The notes below the pieces were generated by a model, which had not been told where the DNA came from, searched no databases, and was given only the letters and a program-made list of their open reading frames with translations. The translations under genes were made by a program, and so were the position numbers. A stretch of 64,000 bases of DNA. It comes from Candidatus Nomurabacteria bacterium (GTDB lineage: Bacteria > Patescibacteriota > Minisyncoccia > Phycocordibacterales > UBA918). The number at the start of each line of letters is the position of its first letter. The first letter of the stretch is position 1. Shown here piece after piece: positions 3,498-26,389 of this stretch. Location of the stretch: assembly GCA_020632035.1 (NCBI GenBank), contig JACKGG010000005.1, positions 4,855 through 68,854 of the forward strand, given 5' to 3'.

Positions 3498-4136
3498 TTG
3501 AATTATAATATGCAATCGAAATCATTACTTATTGCCATCGCCGCTTTTGCAGTTACTACAACCGGAGTTCAAGCCTATGGCGGAGTTGAAAAATTAGCAA
3601 GAGCAGGTATTAACAAAGAACAGATTCAAGCTTTTGAAGAAGCTAGAGAGCTTAGAGAGTCTGGCGACCTGAAATCAGCTCGCGACAGGCTGGTAAAGGC
3701 TGGAATAGATGAGGAGACACTAAAGAAAGTGCGAGAGGCTAAGAAAATGGTACACTCAGCCATTCAAGAGGCTGTAGAAAACAAAGATTATGAGACATTT
3801 AAAGTGGCCATAGCAGATTCACCACTCTCTGATATCGTCACAACTAAATCAGATTTTGACCTATTTGTGGAAGCTCACGAGCTCAAAATGGAAGGAGAGT
3901 GGATAGAGGCAGAAGAAATATTTTCTGAGTTAGGTATTAATAGACATGGTAAGCCTAGAAACCACTTCGGAATGAGAGGACATGTTCTTTCAGATTTAGA
4001 CGATGTACAGAGAGAGGCCTTTCAAGTTGCTAGACAATCAAATGATCGGGAGACCATGCATGCTATTTTAAAGGAAGCCGGAGTCGAATTGCACCATCGT
4101 CACCGTGAGCAAAAACCGATTAAATGGATTGAGTAA
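3498..4136 (+). CDS. hypothetical secreted protein (alpha-helical, Lys/Glu-rich)
   Basis: 212 aa. The signal peptide MQSKSLLIAIAAFAVTTTGVQA follows an alternative start at 3510. No recognisable domain. Confidence 0.5.
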   Translation: MNYNMQSKSLLIAIAAFAVTTTGVQAYGGVEKLARAGINKEQIQAFEEARELRESGDLKSARDRLVKAGIDEETLKKVREAKKMVHSAIQEAVENKDYETFKVAIADSPLSDIVTTKSDFDLFVEAHELKMEGEWIEAEEIFSELGINRHGKPRNHFGMRGHVLSDLDDVQREAFQVARQSNDRETMHAILKEAGVELHHRHREQKPIKWIE

Positions 4137-14460: not shown

Positions 14461-14604
14461 TAACTATTGTCACATTTAATTTTGTGTTGCAGAAACTTGC
14501 ATTTTTGTAAGATAAGAGTAAAGTTTACGTACACGATTGCTTTGGGGTGGCGTGTTTACAATTTAATAAAGATTTTAGTATTTACCTACGATTACAATAG
14601 ATTT

Positions 14605-17600
14605 ATGAATATACTTACTTATACACAACGAAACCTTTCTGCAAAATTCTTCGCAGCTATAACGATTGTTTCAATGATTCTGAGCGCCTTTCCGGTGGCT
14701 TTTTTTGTTGCGGACGCAGCAACAATTGATTTTACAGTTTATGCTGTACCTGACCCTGTTGGCACTGATGGAGATGGTGAATACGTAACTATTTCTTTTA
14801 TTGATACAGTTGATTTTGCGGGTTGGAAACTGGTTGATAATAATGGTGATGAAACAGATCTCACTTCACTTGGGATTGTAAGTGGTCCAGACGACCTGCA
14901 GATTTGTAGTAATATGGTTTTTTCAACAAATGGTGGGGTGAATTGTGATTTGACGTTCGGGACAAACTTCAATTTGGTAAATACTGCTGGTCAAGTTCAA
15001 CTAGTTTCTCCAGACCCTTCAGTGGTGGTTGATCTAACATGGGCATCTGTTACTGTAGGACAAACTGTAAGTGATTCTGGTCAATATATTGAGCCATCAG
15101 TAGCTTGTACTCCACAGCATGATGCAGCTGGAGTAACAAATATCCAAAACACTAGCACTGGAGATTACTTTGACTCTATTGAGGATGCTTTGGCTGACTG
15201 TGATACTTCAGACGGCGATATTGTGGAACTACTTGGCGATATTACCACTACTAAACAACAAAGAATTGCTCGACCAATCATACTAGACGGAAATGGTTAC
15301 ACGATTGATGCTGCTTTTGCTAAAAACGGAAATGATAACAATTCTGCTATCAATGTGTTCGGCACTTCTGACGTGACTGTTATGGACATTGTCCTTGATG
15401 GTACAAGTGGTACGGAATTACATGGTCTTAATGTCTACCGTTCTGATGATGTGGTGGTATCAAACCTAGAGGCGAAGAACTTCAGAACAGGACTATTAGT
15501 AAATGGTTCAGTTGTAGCTGCTAGTGATATCACTACTTCAGGTAATACTTGGCATGCAATAAATGTCGACAAAGGTTCAGATGACTATCCAGCAACACTG
15601 ATTATTAGCAATACTAGTAGTCATGCAGAAAACTCAGCTACACCCCCATCTGGACACATTCCAGGGGTAAACAAACCCCACATTTATGTAGATAACGCTA
15701 ATGGATTCAACACTGTTATTGATGATGATTCACAGTACGATATACATGAATTCTTTATTCCAACTGTGCCAGCAGTGCAAACTCAGCAGTTTGCAGTTGC
15801 TATTCAGGTGCCAGGAATAAAGCCACAAGTTTATACTCTAAAATCTGTTACGCCGGAACCAGTAGCAAATATACATACAAGTAAGATTGTTTGTACTGAT
15901 GAAGCTGATCTGCCTAACTGGGTTTCAGCACCAAGTACAATTACTGAAACTACTGCTACAGACTGGCTAGCTGAACACAAAGATTCGTCTTGTAGTCTAG
16001 TAAGAGGCTGGGAATTTGAATGGGCACCCAAAGGAACTTCTGATCCAGGAGATACTTTAGTTGGTACCGCTGGTCCTGACTGGACCACCTTTACTGGTTC
16101 AACTCAAGTTCCGGAATCAGCTTTTGATGGCGGAAGTTTCTGGGTGCGTGAAGTACTACAAGCTGACTATATCCCATTTACTCATGAATCTGAGGGAGAC
16201 AAAAATACTGATGATGTAACTGCAGAGATGTACTGTCATACTGATGGTCTGAATTATGATAATTACGACCGAATAGATGATCCAGAAGTAGGCGGTGATT
16301 ACTACTGTGTTGCTTGGAATGTTCCGGTTGAAAAGACTTCTGATGTAACAATCTGTAAGTATGATCAGTCAGAAGAGTCATTAGAAGGTTGGCAATTGGC
16401 TCTACTTGGAGCTGAGGTTGATTCATTATCGGTAAAACCAGACGGAACAACACAGTCAATGCTAAATGTTCCTGCTGGGTTTTACGTACTCAAAGCAGAC
16501 GGAGCGTATGAATATCGAGGTAATACAGGCTTACTAGCAGACGCTAGATTTTCTGAGAGACAAGCAGGTGACCCAGATTTTGGAACCTACCCATACCAAC
16601 CATGGCGAGAAGCCAGTGCTGGAACAGGAGGTCTTGCAGTTCAAGTTAATGGTGATTTGGGAGTATCGTGGGGAAGTACATTTAGTCCTTCTCATGTTTA
16701 CTACGGAGCTCTGTCACAAGCATCTCTAGACGATGTAGACTTCTATGTCTACGATAATGCTTACAACGACAACGTAGGAGAAATTGATGTGACTTTATAC
16801 CATGGGTACACAGGAATTACTGAAGAAGATGGTTGTGTGACGTTTGAGGACGTACCATATGGTGAGTACGAGGTTGAAGAATTACTACAACTAGATTGGA
16901 CAAATCTTTCAGGTCTTGGGCCGGTGGTAGTTGATGAAGAGTCAGAAGTGTTTGAGGTTGTAAACCAAGATCCAAATCAGGAACCAGTGACATGTACACT
17001 TAAGCTTACTAGTGATGATACAAACACAGTTGATGAAAAGGGAGGAGCGTTCGCAAAGGTTTTAAGCTTCATACACAATAATTGGACAACAACACTTAAT
17101 GATGCTGATTGGATATGGGGAGACGACGGTCCAGTAAACCCATCACAGGAAGAAACACAAACCTTCTCTAATAAATTTGGTTGGAGTGGAGCAACAGTAG
17201 TGAGCGCGACACTTTCAATTGCGGCTGACAACAGTTTCTCAGCTACTCTAGACGGAGACCTGGCAGGAGAAGATTTAGGTGAGTTCAACTTTGGCGCAAC
17301 CAAAGATTACGATGTTGCGAGTTTGATAGACGCTGGAAACAATGAACTTTCAGTAGTAGTGAAAAATATGGAGCCAAAAAATCCAAACACTGCGACTGGA
17401 AAAAGTAATCCTGCTGGACTCTATTACGAGTTAACAATCGTTGGTGAAGGAGAGGATTGTGGAGTGCCATATATTCCTGAACCAGAAGAGCCAGAATACG
17501 GAGCTTACTGTGGAGACGGTGAAATCAACCAAGATTGGGAACAATGTGATGGTGATGATGTCGAAGACGGTGAATCCTGTACAGATTACTGTACATTCGA

Positions 17601-19422
17601 TAATCAATGTTCAGTCTTGCAACTAGTTAAAGTCGAGGTGGAAGAAACAGATTCACCAAGCTTTGATTACAATACTATTTACTTAGGAAGCGATAGTAAT
17701 CCAATTCCAAACGGAACATGGTTCAACTTCGATGAACTAGGAGACACTTCAGCTCATACTGTGGCTGATGCGGTTGAAGGACTTGGCGTGAGTCGAGATC
17801 CGGGGACCGGACAACTAAGAATTGGTGCGGATGGTGCTAACAAGAAAGGTTTTGACAAAGTAGTTGGAACAGTTCAGATGTTAGGACTTGAAATCGATAG
17901 TATCAAAAGGGGGATCCCGTTTGTGCCAAGGTACAAACTAGAAGAAGAACCGCCGGCTAGACATACGGATTACGCTGATAAGATTAGTGACACAGAAGCA
18001 TTATTTGATTGGCAGGTTTATGGAGCTAGCGATGGTATGACCCTACAACTTGAAACAGGCGAAGAATATGATTGTGATGAATGTAAAGCAACAGTTGAGG
18101 CGAGAATAGTTGTTAAAGATTATGGGTCTGTTGGTGCAGGAGACATGAGTGATGAAATTATCCTTGGAGACGCTGGGTACAGCACAGTAAGCTTTGGTGA
18201 ATGGTTCCCAATTTCTGAGGCAACTAACCCAGGGGATTCGGCTGTGATGATTCAGGATCCAAATACAGTTACAGGATTTTCTACCCCAGCCGATAAGCCA
18301 GGACTGTTTGTAAGTCGAGAAAACGGTACAGTTAAGGTTGCGTTATACGGAAAACTAGAGAATGGTGGCAAGGATAATAATGAATGGATTGACGCTCGAA
18401 TCGAAGTTAGAGATGCTGGTATTACTAATTTCCAAGCATTAACTGGTCCATACAAGTTAGAAAACGGTTATGATTCTGCCTCTGCAGATGGTACTGGAGT
18501 AGACTTCAAAATGAAGGTTACTACTGCATCTGATGGATTTAGATTCGATATTGATGAGAAATCTATAGCGGTTTGTGACGAAGATACAACTGACCCTGAT
18601 CCAGAAACATACCGAATTGATGGATATAAGTATGAAGTTACAGATAACGGAGATGTGCCTAAGGCAGGTTGGAATATTTACGCAGAAAACAAAGATAACG
18701 CTACTAACAAAGCCACAGTAACTGACGAAAATGGTTACTACTACTTTGATGTGCTAGAAGGTAACTGGGAAATTACTGAAGAAGTATTAACAGATTGGAG
18801 TCAAGTAGAAGTGATAGAAAATGGTGTGACAGTAGACCATGAAGGAGACGGTGTAGAATATTGTCTCTTCGACATTCCTGAAGATGATTCAGACTACGAA
18901 TGCGACTTCTACAATGAGTACATTGGAGATGGAAATGATGGTGGAGGAAGTGATGGTGATGATGACGGTGGTTCTGGAGATACTCCAGATAAGAAAAAAT
19001 CTACTCAAACCAGCACTAGAATAAGTCGCGGTGCACCTGGACAAGTGCTCGGAGCATCTACTATTGGACAATGTCCATTCTTGCTAGAATACATGCAAAT
19101 TACTGCTGAAAACAATAGCCAAGAGGTGAGTAAGTTGCAGATTTTCCTTAACTTATTCAAAGACACGTTTGGTGGAACTGAAAACCCAGTCACTGGTTTC
19201 TTCGGACCTACTACAGACTCAAACGTCAAGGCTTTCCAGGAGTATTATCGATCAGAAGTACTAGATCCATGGTACATCAGGGGAATTGTTCCTCACACTA
19301 AGGCTACGGGGTACGTCTACAAAACAACTCTATGGAAGATTAATAGCATTGTTTGTCCAGATTACGCAGTATTACCAGTGTTTGACGGGGAAGACCTCAA
19401 CTCAAATGTAGATTTGGATTAA
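14605..19422 (+). CDS. large secreted surface protein: right-handed beta-helix region, Cys-rich repeat, Cna-B/prealbumin-like domain, C-terminal peptidoglycan-binding domain
   Basis: The signal peptide runs from Met 14605 (FFAAITIVSMILSAFPVAFFVADAA). A PbH1-like repeat stretch (GNGYTIDAAF...NVFGTSDVTVMDIVLDG...) spans about 15280-15600. 'CGDGEINQDWEQCDGDDVEDGESCTDYC' (about 17509-17595) resembles the myxo-type Cys-rich repeat. 'GWNIYAENKDN...ENGYYYFD' is Cna-B-like. 'LLEYMQITAENNSQEVSKLQIFLNLF...FFGPTTDSNVKAFQEYY' (about 19070-19250) is PG_binding_1-like. Confidence 0.7.
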   Translation: MNILTYTQRNLSAKFFAAITIVSMILSAFPVAFFVADAATIDFTVYAVPDPVGTDGDGEYVTISFIDTVDFAGWKLVDNNGDETDLTSLGIVSGPDDLQICSNMVFSTNGGVNCDLTFGTNFNLVNTAGQVQLVSPDPSVVVDLTWASVTVGQTVSDSGQYIEPSVACTPQHDAAGVTNIQNTSTGDYFDSIEDALADCDTSDGDIVELLGDITTTKQQRIARPIILDGNGYTIDAAFAKNGNDNNSAINVFGTSDVTVMDIVLDGTSGTELHGLNVYRSDDVVVSNLEAKNFRTGLLVNGSVVAASDITTSGNTWHAINVDKGSDDYPATLIISNTSSHAENSATPPSGHIPGVNKPHIYVDNANGFNTVIDDDSQYDIHEFFIPTVPAVQTQQFAVAIQVPGIKPQVYTLKSVTPEPVANIHTSKIVCTDEADLPNWVSAPSTITETTATDWLAEHKDSSCSLVRGWEFEWAPKGTSDPGDTLVGTAGPDWTTFTGSTQVPESAFDGGSFWVREVLQADYIPFTHESEGDKNTDDVTAEMYCHTDGLNYDNYDRIDDPEVGGDYYCVAWNVPVEKTSDVTICKYDQSEESLEGWQLALLGAEVDSLSVKPDGTTQSMLNVPAGFYVLKADGAYEYRGNTGLLADARFSERQAGDPDFGTYPYQPWREASAGTGGLAVQVNGDLGVSWGSTFSPSHVYYGALSQASLDDVDFYVYDNAYNDNVGEIDVTLYHGYTGITEEDGCVTFEDVPYGEYEVEELLQLDWTNLSGLGPVVVDEESEVFEVVNQDPNQEPVTCTLKLTSDDTNTVDEKGGAFAKVLSFIHNNWTTTLNDADWIWGDDGPVNPSQEETQTFSNKFGWSGATVVSATLSIAADNSFSATLDGDLAGEDLGEFNFGATKDYDVASLIDAGNNELSVVVKNMEPKNPNTATGKSNPAGLYYELTIVGEGEDCGVPYIPEPEEPEYGAYCGDGEINQDWEQCDGDDVEDGESCTDYCTFDNQCSVLQLVKVEVEETDSPSFDYNTIYLGSDSNPIPNGTWFNFDELGDTSAHTVADAVEGLGVSRDPGTGQLRIGADGANKKGFDKVVGTVQMLGLEIDSIKRGIPFVPRYKLEEEPPARHTDYADKISDTEALFDWQVYGASDGMTLQLETGEEYDCDECKATVEARIVVKDYGSVGAGDMSDEIILGDAGYSTVSFGEWFPISEATNPGDSAVMIQDPNTVTGFSTPADKPGLFVSRENGTVKVALYGKLENGGKDNNEWIDARIEVRDAGITNFQALTGPYKLENGYDSASADGTGVDFKMKVTTASDGFRFDIDEKSIAVCDEDTTDPDPETYRIDGYKYEVTDNGDVPKAGWNIYAENKDNATNKATVTDENGYYYFDVLEGNWEITEEVLTDWSQVEVIENGVTVDHEGDGVEYCLFDIPEDDSDYECDFYNEYIGDGNDGGGSDGDDDGGSGDTPDKKKSTQTSTRISRGAPGQVLGASTIGQCPFLLEYMQITAENNSQEVSKLQIFLNLFKDTFGGTENPVTGFFGPTTDSNVKAFQEYYRSEVLDPWYIRGIVPHTKATGYVYKTTLWKINSIVCPDYAVLPVFDGEDLNSNVDLD

Positions 19423-20722: not shown

Positions 20723-21169
20723 ATGAAAGAAAAAACCACTACTGTATTATCTGTATTCCCTGCCACACACTCAAAAAAACTTCACTCACAACCACTTTAC
20801 GTTAGTCAACCAGCGGCTGGTTTTCCTTCCCCAGGCGATGATTTAGTAGAAAAAGCCTTGGATCTAAACGATTTACTGGTCGAGAATGAAAGCGCGACAT
20901 TTTTTGTGCGAGTGAGCGGTGATTCTATGGAGGGTGCCAAAATCTTTGATGGAGATATTTTGGTGGTAGACCGCTCCGTGGAAGCCCGGTCCGGACACAT
21001 CGTAGTCGCGGCTGTCTATGGCGAACTAGTAGTTAAACGTCTTTTGAGCAAGGGCAACAAACTTTTTTTAATATCTGAAAACGATCAATATAAACCTATT
21101 CAGATAGATGAAACCGAAGGATGCTTCATCTGGGGCGTAGTAACTGGTAGTGCTAGGGTAATTTTGTAA
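20723..21169 (+). CDS. umuD: UmuD-like S24 peptidase (LexA/UmuD family, no HTH)
   Basis: 148 aa with a candidate autocleavage site A-G in 'QPAAGFPSPGDD', catalytic Ser in 'SGDSMEG' and Lys in 'LVVKRL'. There is no N-terminal DNA-binding domain. Confidence 0.7.
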   Translation: MKEKTTTVLSVFPATHSKKLHSQPLYVSQPAAGFPSPGDDLVEKALDLNDLLVENESATFFVRVSGDSMEGAKIFDGDILVVDRSVEARSGHIVVAAVYGELVVKRLLSKGNKLFLISENDQYKPIQIDETEGCFIWGVVTGSARVIL

Positions 21170-22472: not shown

Positions 22473-22602
22473 AATTTAAGTTTTAGCCGCCAAAGAGGCA
22501 CGAATTTTATTATGTTACTTTGCTTACTATACAACAGGATAGTTATAGAGTATAACTTCCGCATGTTCTTTTTAGTAATTTTCAGACATGAAGGGGTGTG
22601 AA

Positions 22603-23088
22603 ATGCAAAAATTAAACATTAAATACAACTCAGAGGATTGGAGGGGCGCTGTTTTGTCTAATTTGGCCACCACCCCTTTCTCTGTCGCAGGTTTTGACTT
22701 TCTGTCTGTGGAAAGTGCTATTCAGGGCATAAAGTTCCACAGTAAGAACGAAAGAGAGTCGGTATTTAGAATGACCGGCATGGATGCCCTTAAGGCTGGA
22801 CGCCCAATAACAAACTCAATAAGTGAAAGGGTAGAGTCTTTCGTGTACTGGGAAGGGCAGGAGTTTCCTTATAACTCAATGGATCATCGTCTGCTTCTCG
22901 CCATGTTTATTGGCGAGAAAGTCAGACAGAATCCAAACGTACAAGAAGCTCTCTTGGCAACTGACGGGACCTTTATTTACCACGATGTGGGGGAAGAGAA
23001 CCCCAACACTTCTTTGCCGGAGAAATTCTATATCCAAATACTACTTGCTCAAAGAAGCTTGCTGGCTCGACTTAGGAATATTTCCTAG
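22603..23088 (+). CDS. NADAR-like (YbiA-type) domain protein
   Basis: 'FSVAGFDFLSVESAIQGIKF' can be compared with E. coli YbiA 'FSNF...TSEHYFQAQKF', and 'LLATDGTFIYHDVGEENPN' with YbiA 'LLATAPAKLVEHTENDAYWGDG'. The SD AAGGGG sits 7 nt upstream of the ATG at 22603. Confidence 0.45.
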   Translation: MQKLNIKYNSEDWRGAVLSNLATTPFSVAGFDFLSVESAIQGIKFHSKNERESVFRMTGMDALKAGRPITNSISERVESFVYWEGQEFPYNSMDHRLLLAMFIGEKVRQNPNVQEALLATDGTFIYHDVGEENPNTSLPEKFYIQILLAQRSLLARLRNIS

Positions 23089-23112
23089 TTTGCTAATTTC
23101 TCACCAAGATAG

Positions 23113-23145
23113 ACAAGGCTGTCCGTAAGGACGGCCTTTCTTTTT
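23113..23145 (+). terminator. rho-independent terminator
   Basis: GGCTGTCCG-TAA-GGACGGCC followed by TTTCTTTTT. Confidence 0.55.
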
Positions 23146-23183
23146 ATACAAAGTTGACACCTTTAGAGGTGAGTTTGAAACTT

Positions 23184-23224
23184 TGTAGTGTTGTATTGAC
23201 ATTGTCACTACATAACTTATTATA
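23184..23224 (+). promoter_or_regulatory. promoter with overlapping inverted-repeat operator upstream of the relB/dinJ-yafQ pair
   Basis: The inverted repeat TGTAGTG (23184-23190) / CACTACA (23206-23212) brackets -35 TTGACA (23196-23201). The -10-like ATTATA (23219-23224) lies 7 nt before the ATG, implying a near-leaderless transcript. Confidence 0.4.
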
Positions 23225-23231
23225 GATACAT

Positions 23232-23507
23232 ATGAATTCACAAGAAACAATTCAAATTAGGATTGATGCCAAAACTAAGAAAGCAGCTAGGAAGACTCTA
23301 GATGAGCTAGGATTAGATATGTCTAGTGCTGTTAAGCTATTTTTAACTAATGTGGTAAACAGAAAAGGTATACCTTTTGATCTGCGGACTGAGAATGGGT
23401 TCACCTTGGCTCAAGAGCAGGCTTTAATAGCTGAGACAGAGGTAGCAAAGAAGACCGGTAAGAGTTTTAGTGATCTTGATGAACTTTTTTCAGATTTAAA
23501 ATTGTAG
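23232..23507 (+). CDS. relB: RelB/DinJ family antitoxin
   Basis: 91 aa. 'IQIRIDAKTKKAARKTLDELGLDMSSAVKLFL' is a ribbon-helix-helix DinJ/RelB signature. Confidence 0.75.
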   Translation: MNSQETIQIRIDAKTKKAARKTLDELGLDMSSAVKLFLTNVVNRKGIPFDLRTENGFTLAQEQALIAETEVAKKTGKSFSDLDELFSDLKL

Positions 23508-23509
23508 TC

Positions 23510-23791
23510 GTGAAGTATTCAGTACACTACACTACACGCTTTAAAAAATCCCTTAAGCGTGCAAAACAACTGCCTGCTTTCAAGTCAGAAAAACTTAAGG
23601 AGGCTATTTCAATTTTGGCACATGGTAATAGTCTTCCTCCAGAATTTAAAGACCACCGACTTACTGGAAACATGAAAAAGTTTAGAGAGTGTCATTTAGC
23701 TCCGGATATTATTCTTATCTATGAGACAGACGATGGAATTCTAATCCTTACTCTTGTTAATATCGGTAACCATTCTCAGTTGTTTAAATAA
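23510..23791 (+). CDS. yafQ: YafQ/RelE-family mRNA interferase toxin
   Basis: 93 aa with a GTG start 3 nt after the antitoxin stop. 'YTTRFKKSLKRAKQ' and 'KDHRLTGNMKKFRECHLAPDIILIY' match the YafQ/RelE fold signature. Confidence 0.75.
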   Translation: MKYSVHYTTRFKKSLKRAKQLPAFKSEKLKEAISILAHGNSLPPEFKDHRLTGNMKKFRECHLAPDIILIYETDDGILILTLVNIGNHSQLFK

Positions 23792-23792
23792 G

Positions 23793-23819
23793 TTCGAACA
23801 TCCTTCACCCAGCGGAGCC
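23793..23819 (+). repeat. copy B of the direct-repeat family (TTCGAACATCCTTCACCCAGCGGAGCC)
   Basis: It begins 2 nt after the yafQ stop. It differs from copy C at only 2-3 of 27 positions. Confidence 0.55.
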
Positions 23820-23904
23820 AATTGAAATACCCGTATTTTACAGGGATGTTTTTTATTACCTGAAATCGATATCGAACTTTTTGTGACTATTGTAATAAAA
23901 ATAT

Positions 23905-23932
23905 TTGACTTCTTATTTTTAGTATCTATAAT
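23905..23932 (+). promoter_or_regulatory. sigma-70-like promoter (-35 TTGACT, 16-bp spacer, -10 TATAAT)
   Basis: TTGACT is at 23905-23910 and TATAAT at 23927-23932. The predicted TSS at about 23939-23940 coincides with the uORF ATG. Confidence 0.45.
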
Positions 23933-23939
23933 CAAGTAA

Positions 23940-24011
23940 ATGACTAATAAATATCAATTCAACACTTGGTGGACTGCTTGGAGAAACGGGCAGTGGTGTT
24001 TTTGTATTTAA
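23940..24011 (+). CDS. candidate leader peptide MTNKYQFNTWWTAWRNGQWCFCI (23 aa; 4 Trp including a WW pair)
   Basis: The ATG at the predicted TSS indicates a leaderless mRNA. Four TGG codons fall in a 30-nt stretch of an AT-rich genome. GGGCAGT (23988-23994) inside the uORF can pair with ACTGCCC of the downstream terminator's 5' arm. Confidence 0.3.
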   Translation: MTNKYQFNTWWTAWRNGQWCFCI

Positions 24012-24040
24012 TAGTGATTATTCTCCATTAAGTGAAAAAT

Positions 24041-24064
24041 AACTGCCCTCAAGGCAGTTTTTTC
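24041..24064 (+). terminator. intrinsic terminator / attenuator 27 nt upstream of the oxidoreductase start
   Basis: AACTGCC-CTCAA-GGCAGTT followed by TTTTC. The upstream GGGCAGT can form an alternative, mutually exclusive helix with the 5' arm. Confidence 0.5.
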
Positions 24065-24090
24065 TTATAAATCTAAAAATTAATTAAAAT

Positions 24091-25071
24091 ATGAAAACAA
24101 TTAAAAAAACGGACGTGGTAATTATTGGAGCGGGATTCTCAGGGCTTTATTTGGCACATCATTTAGTAAAGGTTGGTAAACGTGATTTCCTCATTGTTGC
24201 GCCCGATATGCAAGCTGTGAGTGACAAGTCATACTTCAATATCAGGTCTAGGGGGGTAAAGCAGACTTCGTTAAAAGAATCTATGAATGTCGCAAGTTAC
24301 GGTATGAGCAACAGACAGTTAGTTAATGTGCTCGTTAACAATATTGATGATGAACTTACATACTTAAGTCATATAACGAAAATGAAACCATCTTTCCTTG
24401 GTGCAATTGTAGCAAGGCCTAAATCGTTGATGAACAAGATACGTAAGGAATCAATCCACAACAGGGTATATGCGGAGGTGTCTTCAGTTAAAAAAAGACA
24501 TGGATACGTAGAAGTCATAACAACTGAAGGTAAGATTCATTGCAAGAAGGTTGTATTTTGCTTCGGTGGTTTAAGAGCGAGATTGTCAGAAAAGTTTGTT
24601 GATGAGAAGGTTAAGAATAACCTTTTTAAGGCTGCTAAAGATGTTGGTTGTGATGTTTTGTATCAAGACCTGGTTATGAAGCATCCTTTCTACTCAAAAG
24701 GTGTCTGCATTCCTAGTGATGATTTGTATAACTTTGATTTCGTTGATGATAAGGAAAAACGTCTTGAGTTAACACATCACTTAGTTAGGGCACATAATGC
24801 CCATCATAGGTTTGATGATATTTGCAAAGAATATCAGAGGACAATAAAGCGCTACGCAATAAATAGAGATAAAATAATTGAATTGGATATAGAGCCTCAT
24901 TTTGTCTTGGGTGGAATAAAGATAAACAGAAGAGGAGAGACAAAGGTAAAAAATGTTTATGCTTTAGGAGAATGCGCTTATGGCATGCATGGCAAAGGTA
25001 GATTAGGAGGTGGTTCCATCGCAGAAATTCTCGTTATGTCTAGAGTGGTTGCAAAACAGATTATTGGTTAG
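24091..25071 (+). CDS. FAD-dependent oxidoreductase (short NadB/FrdA-like flavoprotein)
   Basis: The N-terminal Rossmann motif is 'DVVIIGAGFSGLYLA'. The C-terminal 'ALGECAYGMHGKGRLGGGSIAEILV' resembles the C-terminal FAD-binding motif of L-aspartate oxidase and succinate dehydrogenase flavoproteins. Confidence 0.6.
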   Translation: MKTIKKTDVVIIGAGFSGLYLAHHLVKVGKRDFLIVAPDMQAVSDKSYFNIRSRGVKQTSLKESMNVASYGMSNRQLVNVLVNNIDDELTYLSHITKMKPSFLGAIVARPKSLMNKIRKESIHNRVYAEVSSVKKRHGYVEVITTEGKIHCKKVVFCFGGLRARLSEKFVDEKVKNNLFKAAKDVGCDVLYQDLVMKHPFYSKGVCIPSDDLYNFDFVDDKEKRLELTHHLVRAHNAHHRFDDICKEYQRTIKRYAINRDKIIELDIEPHFVLGGIKINRRGETKVKNVYALGECAYGMHGKGRLGGGSIAEILVMSRVVAKQIIG

Positions 25072-25086
25072 TGCCTACGATATAAG

Positions 25087-25113
25087 TCCGAACATCCACC
25101 ACCCAGCGGAGCC
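25087..25113 (+). repeat. copy C of the direct-repeat family (TCCGAACATCCACCACCCAGCGGAGCC)
   Basis: It lies between the oxidoreductase stop (25071) and the umuC start (25139). Confidence 0.55.
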
Positions 25114-25138: not shown

Positions 25139-26389
25139 ATGAACCCTTCCTTGATTGGACTTTTGGATTGCAACAATTTTTTTGTATCGTGTGAAAGACT
25201 GTTCCGACCGGATCTAATAGGGAAGCCAGTGGTAGTGCTGTCCAGTAATGATGGTTGTGTAGTAGCTCGATCGAAAGAGATAAAGGACATGGGTATACCA
25301 ATGGGTGTCCCTTACTTTCAGATAAAGGACATTTTAAAAAAAGCTGATGCCGTAACGTTTTCTTCGCACTTTTCTTTGTATCGAGACATCTCAAAAAGAG
25401 TGTTTTCTGTCATGCACAAAGAACTTGGTTTTATTGAGCAATATTCGATAGATGAAGCTTTCTTTACTGTAAGTTCAGGAGCAGAAGAAGTCGCACATAA
25501 CTTAAAAAGAGTGATTGAAAAACAAGTAGGTATCCCAGTTTCAATTGGCTTGGCACAAACAAAAACTCAAGCAAAATATGCTAATTCAATAGCTAAAAAG
25601 GGCACAGGGGTCTGTGCCCTAAGGTTGTCTGATTGGCAGGCTATAGCTAAAGATATTCCCCTAGCTAGTATCTGGGGCGTCGGCGGAAAAACGGAGCTTT
25701 TATATAAAAAACACGGTCTTGAAACCGTTGCGGATTTTATTGTGTTGGATCAATCTAGAGTGGCTAGTTTATTTGGACTGTCTGGCATTAGACTACAACA
25801 AGAATTGATCGGTAATCCAGTGTTTTCGGTTGAACATAAAGTATCTACCCAACAAAGTATTTTGAGCTCAAGATCTTTTTCTGAGACGGCTACAGATTTG
25901 TCTGTTTTGGCTGATGCAGTGGCTTACCATGTGCGTCACGCCACTGCTAATTTGAGATCCTTGGGATTGGAGGCAGGTAAGATCAGAGTCTCGATTCGGC
26001 CGAGTAGACACAGTGATTTTATGCTTCGTGGGGGCTCTAAAGAAGCCTTTATGATTGCTCCTACTGCTGATTCTATATCATTGCTCAGAGTAGCAAACGA
26101 TCTCTTAAAAGATCTGCATGAACCGGGCGTACCCTACAAAAAAGTGGGTGTCGTGTTGTCTCTATTCAGCCCAGTAAACCAAGGACAAACTACGCTTTTT
26201 CCAGACGATACTAAAGTCAAACATGACACGCTGATGTCATTGGTGGACAGCCTTAATACTAAGATAAAAAAAGAATCAGTGTTACTAGGGTCGAGATTGT
26301 TAAGTTCGGCTTGGCAAGCAAAGAGTGAAGTGTGTTCACCGAGCTATACGACTAACTGGTCAGAGGTGGTAATAACTAAAGCTCAATAA
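25139..26389 (+). CDS. umuC: Y-family DNA polymerase, UmuC-like (Pol V catalytic subunit)
   Basis: 'GLLDCNNFFVSCERLFRPDLIGKPVVVLSSNDGCVVARSKEIKDMGI' matches the Y-family N-terminal palm motif. The 417-aa length is UmuC-like. The start was moved to the Met at 25139. Confidence 0.85.
   Translation: MNPSLIGLLDCNNFFVSCERLFRPDLIGKPVVVLSSNDGCVVARSKEIKDMGIPMGVPYFQIKDILKKADAVTFSSHFSLYRDISKRVFSVMHKELGFIEQYSIDEAFFTVSSGAEEVAHNLKRVIEKQVGIPVSIGLAQTKTQAKYANSIAKKGTGVCALRLSDWQAIAKDIPLASIWGVGGKTELLYKKHGLETVADFIVLDQSRVASLFGLSGIRLQQELIGNPVFSVEHKVSTQQSILSSRSFSETATDLSVLADAVAYHVRHATANLRSLGLEAGKIRVSIRPSRHSDFMLRGGSKEAFMIAPTADSISLLRVANDLLKDLHEPGVPYKKVGVVLSLFSPVNQGQTTLFPDDTKVKHDTLMSLVDSLNTKIKKESVLLGSRLLSSAWQAKSEVCSPSYTTNWSEVVITKAQ

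Follow-up and report, generated by a model that had tools for sequence, protein, structure and literature searches.

A probable tryptophan-sensing attenuator with a predicted leaderless leader ORF upstream of a FrdA/NadB-like flavoprotein gene in Candidatus Nomurabacteria

A 64-kb stretch of a Candidatus Nomurabacteria genome (Patescibacteria/candidate phyla radiation, CPR), hereafter the window, carries a short open reading frame (ORF) rich in tryptophan codons and an intrinsic terminator just upstream of a gene for a flavoprotein that resembles FrdA and NadB. Reading this leader together with its counterparts at orthologous loci, we conclude that the flavoprotein gene is probably controlled by a ribosome-mediated, Trp-sensing transcription attenuator of the trpL type. 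The mechanism as such is known; new are the phylum, the leaderless start and a FrdA/NadB-like enzyme as the target. Reduced, uncultured CPR bacteria thus appear to use classic ribosome-coupled attenuation from leaderless messenger RNA (mRNA), with minimal-stem-I T-boxes in sister lineages. The main value of the finding is a functional lead on the flavoprotein family.

Four-segment leader upstream of the flavoprotein gene

An earlier note on this DNA had named a promoter, a leader ORF, a pair of complementary segments, a terminator and the start codon of the gene, and every one of these coordinates matches the sequence base for base. Its comparison of the arrangement with trp-style attenuation is supported as well, comparative conservation and footprint-constrained folding both agreeing with it. 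The leader and the gene are composed of the following features.

23905-23932 (+), sigma-70-type promoter: TTGACT at 23905-23910, 16-nt spacer, TATAAT at 23927-23932; 11 of 12 positions match
23940-24011 (+), predicted leaderless leader ORF of 23 codons, MTNKYQFNTWWTAWRNGQWCFCI; the ORF is retained in 16 distinct orthologous loci
23967-23972 (+), tandem Trp codons W10-W11, predicted regulatory stall site; TGGTGG is invariant across nine close leaders
23973-23979 (+), segment 1, ACTGCTT; pairs with segment 2 as anti-antiterminator or pause hairpin
23988-24012 (+), segment 2, GGGCAGT at 23988-23994 with a 3′ extension; 5′ strand of the antiterminator, with 24025-24048 as its partner
24025-24048 (+), segment 3; 3′ strand of the antiterminator, its end (24041-24047) being the 5′ arm of the terminator
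24041-24063 (+), intrinsic terminator (3:4), AACTGCC-CTCAA-GGCAGTT and T run; hairpin at 24041-24059 with 7 pairs, 4 of them G-C
24091-25071 (+), regulated gene for a FrdA/NadB-like flavin adenine dinucleotide (FAD) flavoprotein of 326 aa, free of Trp; Pfam PF00890/PF07992

The leader ORF, which is unannotated in NCBI, starts 7 nt past the -10 box and ends with the stop codon at 24009-24011. Its four TGG codons are present as the earlier note had described, the tandem pair lying at 23967-23972. The accompanying remark that G-rich codons are scarce in this genome needs a minor correction, as their scarcity is not marked, with a GC content of 40.8% and Trp making up 1.38% of the residues in long ORFs. 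Missing from the note was segment 1, the ACTGC(TT) at 23973-23979 that begins directly 3′ of the tandem Trp codons and completes the four-segment topology. The complement of GGGCAGT in segment 2 is ACTGCCC at 24042-24048. Between the terminator and the flavoprotein ATG lie 27 nt, a gap too short for a separate promoter. The ATG at 24091 is backed by alignment and by all other members of the flavoprotein family. The NCBI model of the protein (P0001, 306 aa) begins 20 codons late (skipping 24091-24150 of the window) and loses the first β-strand and the GxGxxG FAD motif.

A leaderless start at the leader ATG would fit the pattern of the genome. No Shine-Dalgarno motif precedes any of the 32 ORFs of the window, and a TATAAT-like hexamer ends exactly 6 nt before the ATG in 10 of the 32, or at 6-8 nt in 14. 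Starts that exemplify this set are those at 2851, 4184, 6881, 8184, 9725, 20723, 25139, 31783 and 59052. Since Shine-Dalgarno motifs are lacking and -10 boxes peak 6 nt before the ATG, leaderless mRNAs seem to be the rule in this genome. The spacing from the -10 box to the start is 7 nt in the leader of the window and 6 nt in most of its orthologues.

For the analysis of competing folds the ribosome was modeled as a 30-nt footprint imposed on the leader. The pairings 1:2, 2:3 and 3:4 are mutually exclusive, and 2:3 sequesters the 5′ arm of the terminator. The 1:2 hairpin (segment 1 with 23988-23994) is worth -10.4 kcal/mol, the 61-nt antiterminator formed by 2:3 (23988-24048) -20.2 kcal/mol and the terminator -8.8 to -9.8 kcal/mol. 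In the free leader RNA without a ribosome, 1:2 and 3:4 both form. When the footprint is placed so that the A site holds W10 or W11, the antiterminator is the structure of minimum free energy (-21.6 kcal/mol compared with -9.8 kcal/mol for the terminator) and no terminator forms. Folding both conformations had been proposed in the earlier note as a check, and a stable antiterminator is indeed obtained with either of these two footprints. Moving the footprint to W14, W19 or the stop codon lets the terminator at 24041-24059 form. The same footprint switch is found in L001, L002, L018, L004, L034, L022, L027 and L044 (L numbers denote loci gathered around homologues of the flavoprotein, see below). 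Furthermore, at 12 of 14 loci the complementarity between the leader past its Trp codons and the 5′ arm plus loop of the terminator ranks in the top 3.3% when compared with dinucleotide shuffles; for the window the value is 2.3%, beating 97.7% of shuffles.

From these data we infer the following course for transcription start, ribosome stalling, termination and the physiological response. Transcription would start at or within one base of the leader ATG at 23940 and yield a leaderless mRNA, with the ribosome loading on the 5′-terminal AUG of the leader. If charged tRNA-Trp is scarce, the ribosome would stall with W10 or W11 (23967-23972) in the A site and its footprint over segment 1. Segment 2 (23988-23994 with the extension to 24012) would thereby be freed to pair with segment 3 (24025-24048) as the antiterminator, which would sequester the terminator 5′ arm at 24041-24047 and let RNA polymerase read through into the gene at 24091. 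If tRNA-Trp is charged, the ribosome would reach later codons or the stop at 24009-24011 and cover segment 2 with its extension; the 3:4 terminator would then form and transcription would stop 27 nt short of the gene. Without translation, 1:2 and 3:4 would form and transcription would terminate as well. Like its counterpart in Escherichia coli trpL, the 1:2 hairpin could serve as an RNA polymerase pause site that synchronizes the polymerase with the leader ribosome; alternatively it could be a weak early terminator. Within 23973-24004 this hairpin is followed by GGTGTTTTTG, and the scan flagged it as terminator-like.

How far such features could arise by chance was assessed within the window and by shuffling. 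Small ORFs with tandem Trp codons (WW) number 9 of 574 in the window, and only the leader ORF among these 574 contains four Trp codons. In shuffled sequence a small ORF with two or more Trp codons turns up in the 200 nt upstream with a probability of 0.051 for the window and of 0.007 to 0.12 for seven other representative loci; the joint shuffle probability over leader classes is below ~1e-5, counting only four independent classes. The folding stability of the leader exceeds that of 200 of 200 shuffles (z = -3.75), and terminator-like sites are enriched in the region, with 15 found compared with 4.9 expected. By itself the window provides moderate evidence. Conservation at orthologous loci lends what we regard as decisive support to the predicted attenuator.

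Trp leaders and T-boxes at orthologous loci

We gathered 48 loci around flavoprotein homologues. A short ORF with Trp codons, the 1:2/2:3/3:4 topology and a terminator are retained at 16 distinct orthologous loci (46-100% protein identity), among which are at least five leader classes that cannot be aligned with one another. Conservation of the upstream ORF and its Trp codons, another check that the earlier note had suggested, is thus found in close and distant subfamilies alike.

The close relatives comprise L001-L004, L018-L020 and L046 (74-85% identity) as well as L034 (61%). All of them keep the -35 and -10 boxes of the promoter, a start codon 6-7 nt past the -10 box, an ORF of 19-24 codons and the ACTGCC..GGCAG terminator. 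At 74-85% identity the codons TGG TGG NCT GYC TGG are invariant while the remaining peptide varies. The nine aligned close leaders agree throughout in TGG TGG and in segments 1 and 2, and the codons on either side vary, as in MNHIRRTTNTWWAAWQSGQLYFGV, MNYTYQTNATWWPAWHKRQHFFGV, MNSYRQINTSWWTAWLLGRLCFDV, MSTVSQMNVRWWSAWRYWR and MNNYHQHNTFWWTVWLSGRL. Using RNAalifold we obtained the 1:2 hairpin in nine of nine close leaders, together with an enclosing helix that contains 4 compensatory pairs; in the MAFFT alignment (A3) L004 and L046 are misaligned at the terminator.

In the distant orthologues (46-61% identity) the leader peptides are unrelated and the segment sequences wholly different, as the pairs GGACTTTG/CAAAGTCC and GACGCTAT/ATGGCGTC illustrate; the topology is the same.

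L022, leader MIRVSTIQTWWWTLSEVSQSPILSC; segments GGACTTTG / CGCAAAGTCC / GGACTTTGCG, the last within the terminator CCCTCTCC..GGAGAGGG
L027, leader ..FINWRWALRIF..; same arrangement with a different terminator
L006, leader ..FFWTLFFSWRRF..; segments GACGCTAT / ATGGCGTC / GACGCTAT
L035-L039, leader ..FW[RG]Q.IFSWR..
L044, leader ..GFWHIGFSRAFWCML

In every leader class the Trp codons lie directly 5′ of or within segment 1; segment 1 nearly repeats segment 3, and both are complementary to segment 2. Four independent classes, those of the window, L022, L034 and L041, show tandem WW or WWW. There are 23 distinct loci with a stand-alone gene and sufficient upstream sequence; a Trp leader with terminator is present at 16 of them, a T-box with a UGG specifier at four and neither at three. 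At seven further loci the gene is part of a trp or aromatic operon.

The four loci with a T-box (L005, L007, L008 and L043) carry this leader with its own terminator in place of the leader ORF. Scanning with cmscan gave RF00230 matches of 42.8, 45.2 and 52.0 bits (E 4e-8 to 1e-10) in L005, L007 and L043, all under the 93-bit Rfam gathering score; the T-box of L008 was recognized by the shared invariant motif GGUGGCACC and not by the covariance scan. Such minimal-stem-I T-boxes of Paceibacteria would escape standard annotation at current Rfam thresholds.

T-box leaders: L005 2671-2873; L007 2620-2886; L008 ~2320-2605; L043 1380-1623
Specifier context: L008, loop AGAAUGGG; L043, loop (U)AGUGG(G); L005, bulge GUUGG|G; L007, bulge CUGG|G

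In each of the four, stem I is short and leaves UGG and a following G unpaired at the 3′ end of a loop or bulge. The T-box bulge reads UGGC, complementary to a G73-CCA acceptor end, and G occupies the discriminator position of tRNA-Trp according to TBDB (PMC7778990). The UGGN/NCCA rule, a purine after the codon and variants with a short stem I have been described (PMC7583486). We chose UGG-G as the specifier because it is the only candidate common to all four. The specifier placed by cmscan in L007 (GAA-A-GUC-G) was rejected, as this stretch lacks conservation between L005 and L007 and Val would be at odds with the UGGC bulge. The UGG specifier is, on these features, well supported, and tRNA-Trp is the putative partner of the four T-boxes. 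In the window, the Rfam scan of 23000-25000 found no RF00230 T-box at E ≤ 10.

L005 (~2440-2470) and L041 (1-50), which come from two related genomes, have the same upstream flank, which consists of the end of an RNase J gene and TTTTAACATTTTAACAT repeats. In L005 this flank leads to the T-box and the flavoprotein gene, in L041 to a WW leader, a small ORF, trpB, trpA, the flavoprotein gene and trpS. The common flank suggests that the two Trp sensors are interchangeable at one locus.

The flavoprotein and a possible role in Trp supply

The AlphaFold2 model of the flavoprotein (predicted local distance difference test score 91.7) matches FrdA, flavocytochrome c3, UrdA (urocanate reductase) and NadB in Foldseek (E 1e-19, TM(query) 0.7-0.8, ~15% identity). 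With FrdA, SdhA, NadB and UrdA it shares the fold, the FAD-binding motifs and the His/Arg substrate anchors; in the alignment H270 corresponds to FrdA H355, R304 to FrdA R390 and H198-P to FrdA H232-P. Unlike FrdA and NadB, however, it comprises only 326 aa (compared with ~470-600), has a reduced capping domain and no C-terminal helical domain, and shows an invariant HNAH motif in place of the catalytic Arg region as well as 3-4 conserved Cys. Within the family C187, C206 and C295 are invariant and C157 is nearly so; HNAH spans residues 235-238. The conserved Cys, the HNAH motif and the absence of Trp hint at a metal or redox-active site that FrdA and NadB do not have.

Searches of NCBIfam returned nothing above cutoff (best 44-54 bits against cutoffs of 452-932), and the protein belongs to neither the NadB nor the FrdA equivalogs, with a NadB score of 54 bits against a cutoff of 472. 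In a profile search one cluster at 50% identity scored 494 bits, followed at 176 bits by the first full-length protein outside it (378 aa), which marks a tight family; a fragment of 200 aa scoring 315 bits was left out of this comparison. The sister groups are un-named and NadB/FrdA-like. The flavoprotein of the window is 100% identical to an NCBI protein of Candidatus Nomurabacteria, and all homologues with a source taxon name belong to Parcubacteria/Paceibacterota/Patescibacteria.

Gene context suggests a link of the family to aromatic amino acid metabolism. In L040, L041 and L042 the order is trpB-trpA-gene, with a 4-nt overlap with the end of trpA, followed by trpS (TIGR00233, 280 and 299 bits, cutoff 177). 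Upstream of the trpB-trpA-gene operon of L041 lie a WW leader, MSKIDVKFNSVSSWWSQNSV, and a matching attenuator. The order in L010 is aroA-aroC-aminotransferase IV-gene-(chorismate mutase, CM)-prephenate dehydrogenase/prephenate dehydratase/ACT (PDH/PDT/ACT), and in L023 it is aminotransferase IV-CM-PDH/PDT/ACT-gene-DAHP synthase. Chorismate mutase, class IV aminotransferase and flavokinase adjoin the gene in L035, L036 and L039; in L039 the flavokinase is fused to an EamA domain and PDH/PDT is also present. Control of the gene by tRNA-Trp appears to have been reached in three independent ways, by leader peptide, by T-box and by insertion into trpBA or aro operons.

The 34 aligned family members (alignment A1) contain one Trp in 11,181 residues, compared with 1.38% in the ORFs of this genome, and the protein of the window contains none. 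A Trp-free protein is to be expected if the enzyme is needed when Trp is lacking. Taken together, the Trp leaders, the UGG T-boxes, the trp/aro operons and the Trp-free protein probably place the flavoprotein family in Trp supply, an unusually strong case of guilt by association through regulation, and turn a 'hypothetical FAD-binding protein' into a testable candidate for a step by which auxotrophy-prone symbionts acquire Trp, an expensive amino acid. The earlier note had suggested an enzyme acting on tryptophan or an aromatic amine. The link to Trp gains strong support from the T-boxes, operons and Trp-free family, with one qualification: a switch that is on when tRNA-Trp is uncharged points to supply, by biosynthesis or salvage, and not to catabolism.

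We propose that the enzyme may raise Trp supply through FrdA/NadB-type chemistry on a carboxylate substrate. The chemistry of the family is redox at the Cα-Cβ or Cα-N bond of a carboxylate anchored by His and Arg, which makes an indole-bearing acid a reasonable guess for its putative substrate. Candidate salvage or biosynthetic substrates could be the imine of indole-3-pyruvate, D-Trp or indole-acrylate/propionate.

In the window the promoter, leader, terminator and gene are bracketed by a pair of direct repeats 1294 nt apart.

23788-23819 (+), left copy of a 32-nt imperfect direct repeat; overlaps the yafQ stop codon and is identical to the right copy at 29 of 32 positions
25082-25113 (+), right copy of the 32-nt direct repeat, 11 nt past the flavoprotein stop codon

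An analogous pair of different sequence is found in L002 at 2755-2786 and 4060-4091, with a spacing of 1305 nt. The neighbors of the unit differ among close relatives and include yafQ/umuC (window), tRNA genes (L002, L003 and L019) and an epimerase gene (L046). The bracketing repeats and differing flanks suggest that the self-regulated unit moves as a cassette, and look like those of a mobile gene cassette with att-like sites or target duplications and no recombinase inside. The combined proposal, that the Trp-free FrdA/NadB-like flavoprotein is an unrecognized Trp-supply enzyme of Patescibacteria travelling as a self-regulated 1.3-kb cassette between 32-nt repeats, is a tentative one to which we give slightly less than an even chance.

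Alternative explanations and related systems

Several observations weigh against a Trp-sensing attenuator at this gene. Promoter-like sites are as frequent in the region as in shuffled sequence (19 found, 20.0 expected), and the promoter match alone is not significant. The regulated gene is no recognized trp gene and no trp gene was seen in the 64 kb of the window, so that the link to a cognate pathway rests on other genomes. Neither leader nor T-box was seen in the upstream regions inspected at L009, L029 and L047. For the T-boxes, besides their scores below the gathering threshold, the specifier was placed by hand on four sequences, two of which are close relatives. For L003, L006 and L035-L039 the fold of lowest energy is still the terminator when a ribosome is stalled; antitermination would have to depend on kinetic trapping at these loci, 2:3 pairing ahead of the transcription of segment 4. 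A ribosome stalled at W14 or W19 would favor termination, and these two codons may be conserved for RNA pairing instead of sensing. Finally, the shuffle test of complementarity failed in L003 and L027 as implemented, in L027 because the definition of the arm cut the pairing short.

With these points in mind we considered how else the locus might be explained. Mere coincidence, that is a spurious ORF between a fortuitous promoter and the terminator of another transcript or small RNA (sRNA) with the gene expressed from elsewhere, would account for the unremarkable frequency of promoter-like matches and for the nine WW small ORFs that occur in the window by chance. It is extremely unlikely, however, given that ORF, Trp codons, promoter spacing and topology are kept in 16 loci down to 46% identity, with the joint shuffle probability stated above for the four independent classes. 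Nor is there room for another promoter before 24091; the upstream RelB/YafQ operon ends at 23791, a weak hairpin and T run at 23830-23855 may be its own terminator, and direct repeats enclose the unit as a single cassette. A peptide gene is very unlikely too. Here the small ORF would encode a functional product (the precursor of a ribosomally synthesized and post-translationally modified peptide, RiPP, or of a bacteriocin, a signal, or a small protein) and the hairpin would be its terminator, with partial read-through to a modifying flavoenzyme. Such read-through to a modifying enzyme occurs after lantibiotic precursor genes, and the succession of a strong promoter, a short Trp/Cys-rich ORF, a terminator and an oxidoreductase gene resembles it; a WWxAW motif is also retained in close relatives. 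Yet the peptide drifts outside the Trp codons and RNA-pairing nucleotides and is unrelated in distant subfamilies, and the 2:3 complementarity would be without a role. There is no leader/core organization and no protease, transporter or immunity gene nearby, the neighbors being RelB/YafQ and UmuC, and the enzyme has the FrdA/NadB fold, which is neither of the HFCD/LanD type nor any other fold known from RiPP tailoring. Moreover, a T-box replaces the ORF in four loci and no peptide lies directly upstream of the gene within the trp/aro operons. A RiPP precursor with its tailoring enzyme was rejected on peptide drift, gene context and T-box replacement.

A further alternative accepts a translation-coupled RNA switch and questions its signal, which could be general translation capacity or stalling at other codons, for example those for Arg. 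In the leaders W is often followed by R (AWR, SWR, WRW), and several subfamilies have single Trp codons inside pairing segments, where conservation could be structural. We consider a signal other than Trp unlikely, as no amino acid but Trp is shared by all leader classes just 5′ of or within segment 1, four independent classes contain tandem WW or WWW and the specifier of the orthologous T-boxes reads UGG, while the gene is linked to trpBA and trpS and its protein is Trp-free.

As a Trp-sensing attenuator, the leader of the window resembles E. coli trpL (RF00513) in its short leader ORF with tandem Trp codons, its four segments with exclusive 1:2/2:3/3:4 pairing and its 3:4 terminator just before the first structural gene; in trpL, too, a stall masks segment 1 and leads to antitermination. 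In E. coli the tandem Trp codons occupy positions 10-11, as they do in the window. The leader of the window differs in its predicted leaderless start without a Shine-Dalgarno motif, in its CPR host and in having a single flavoprotein gene as its target instead of trpEDCBA; its antiterminator is long (61 nt, -20 kcal/mol) and the unit is bracketed by 32-nt direct repeats. It is like trpL in operation and not a member by sequence, as RF00513 gave no match at E ≤ 10 in 23000-25000. The other Rfam matches in this interval are only weak noise from sRNA and small nucleolar RNA families centered on the terminator.

Mycobacterial polycysteine leaderless small ORFs are described as operonic attenuators that respond to Cys supply (bioRxiv 10.1101/834739). 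What they share with the leader of the window is a leaderless mRNA whose first short ORF is rich in one amino acid, the supply of which sets the downstream operon; they differ in the amino acid (Cys, not Trp) and the actinobacterial host, and have no homology with the leader of the window. Trp T-boxes (RF00230) produce the same output, read-through of a terminator on uncharged tRNA-Trp, from the same position upstream of orthologues, whereas the leader of the window would sense charging via the ribosome and not by direct binding of the tRNA. Full-text literature searching brought up no account of attenuators responding to amino acids, or of Trp T-boxes, from Patescibacteria/CPR.

Beyond the cassette, the window contains two halves of a umuDC-type operon ~4 kb apart, a umuD-like S24 peptidase gene at 20723-21169 and umuC (IMS family) at 25139-26389. 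Between them lie a GH18-like gene, a phage gp30.3-like gene (22588-23088), the RelB/YafQ toxin-antitoxin pair (23232-23791) and the flavoprotein cassette, which suggests serial insertions into the umuDC operon. Two very large ORFs of 1651 aa and 7816 aa (14467-19422 and 33932-57382) are rich in repeated β-rich modules and typical of CPR surface proteins.

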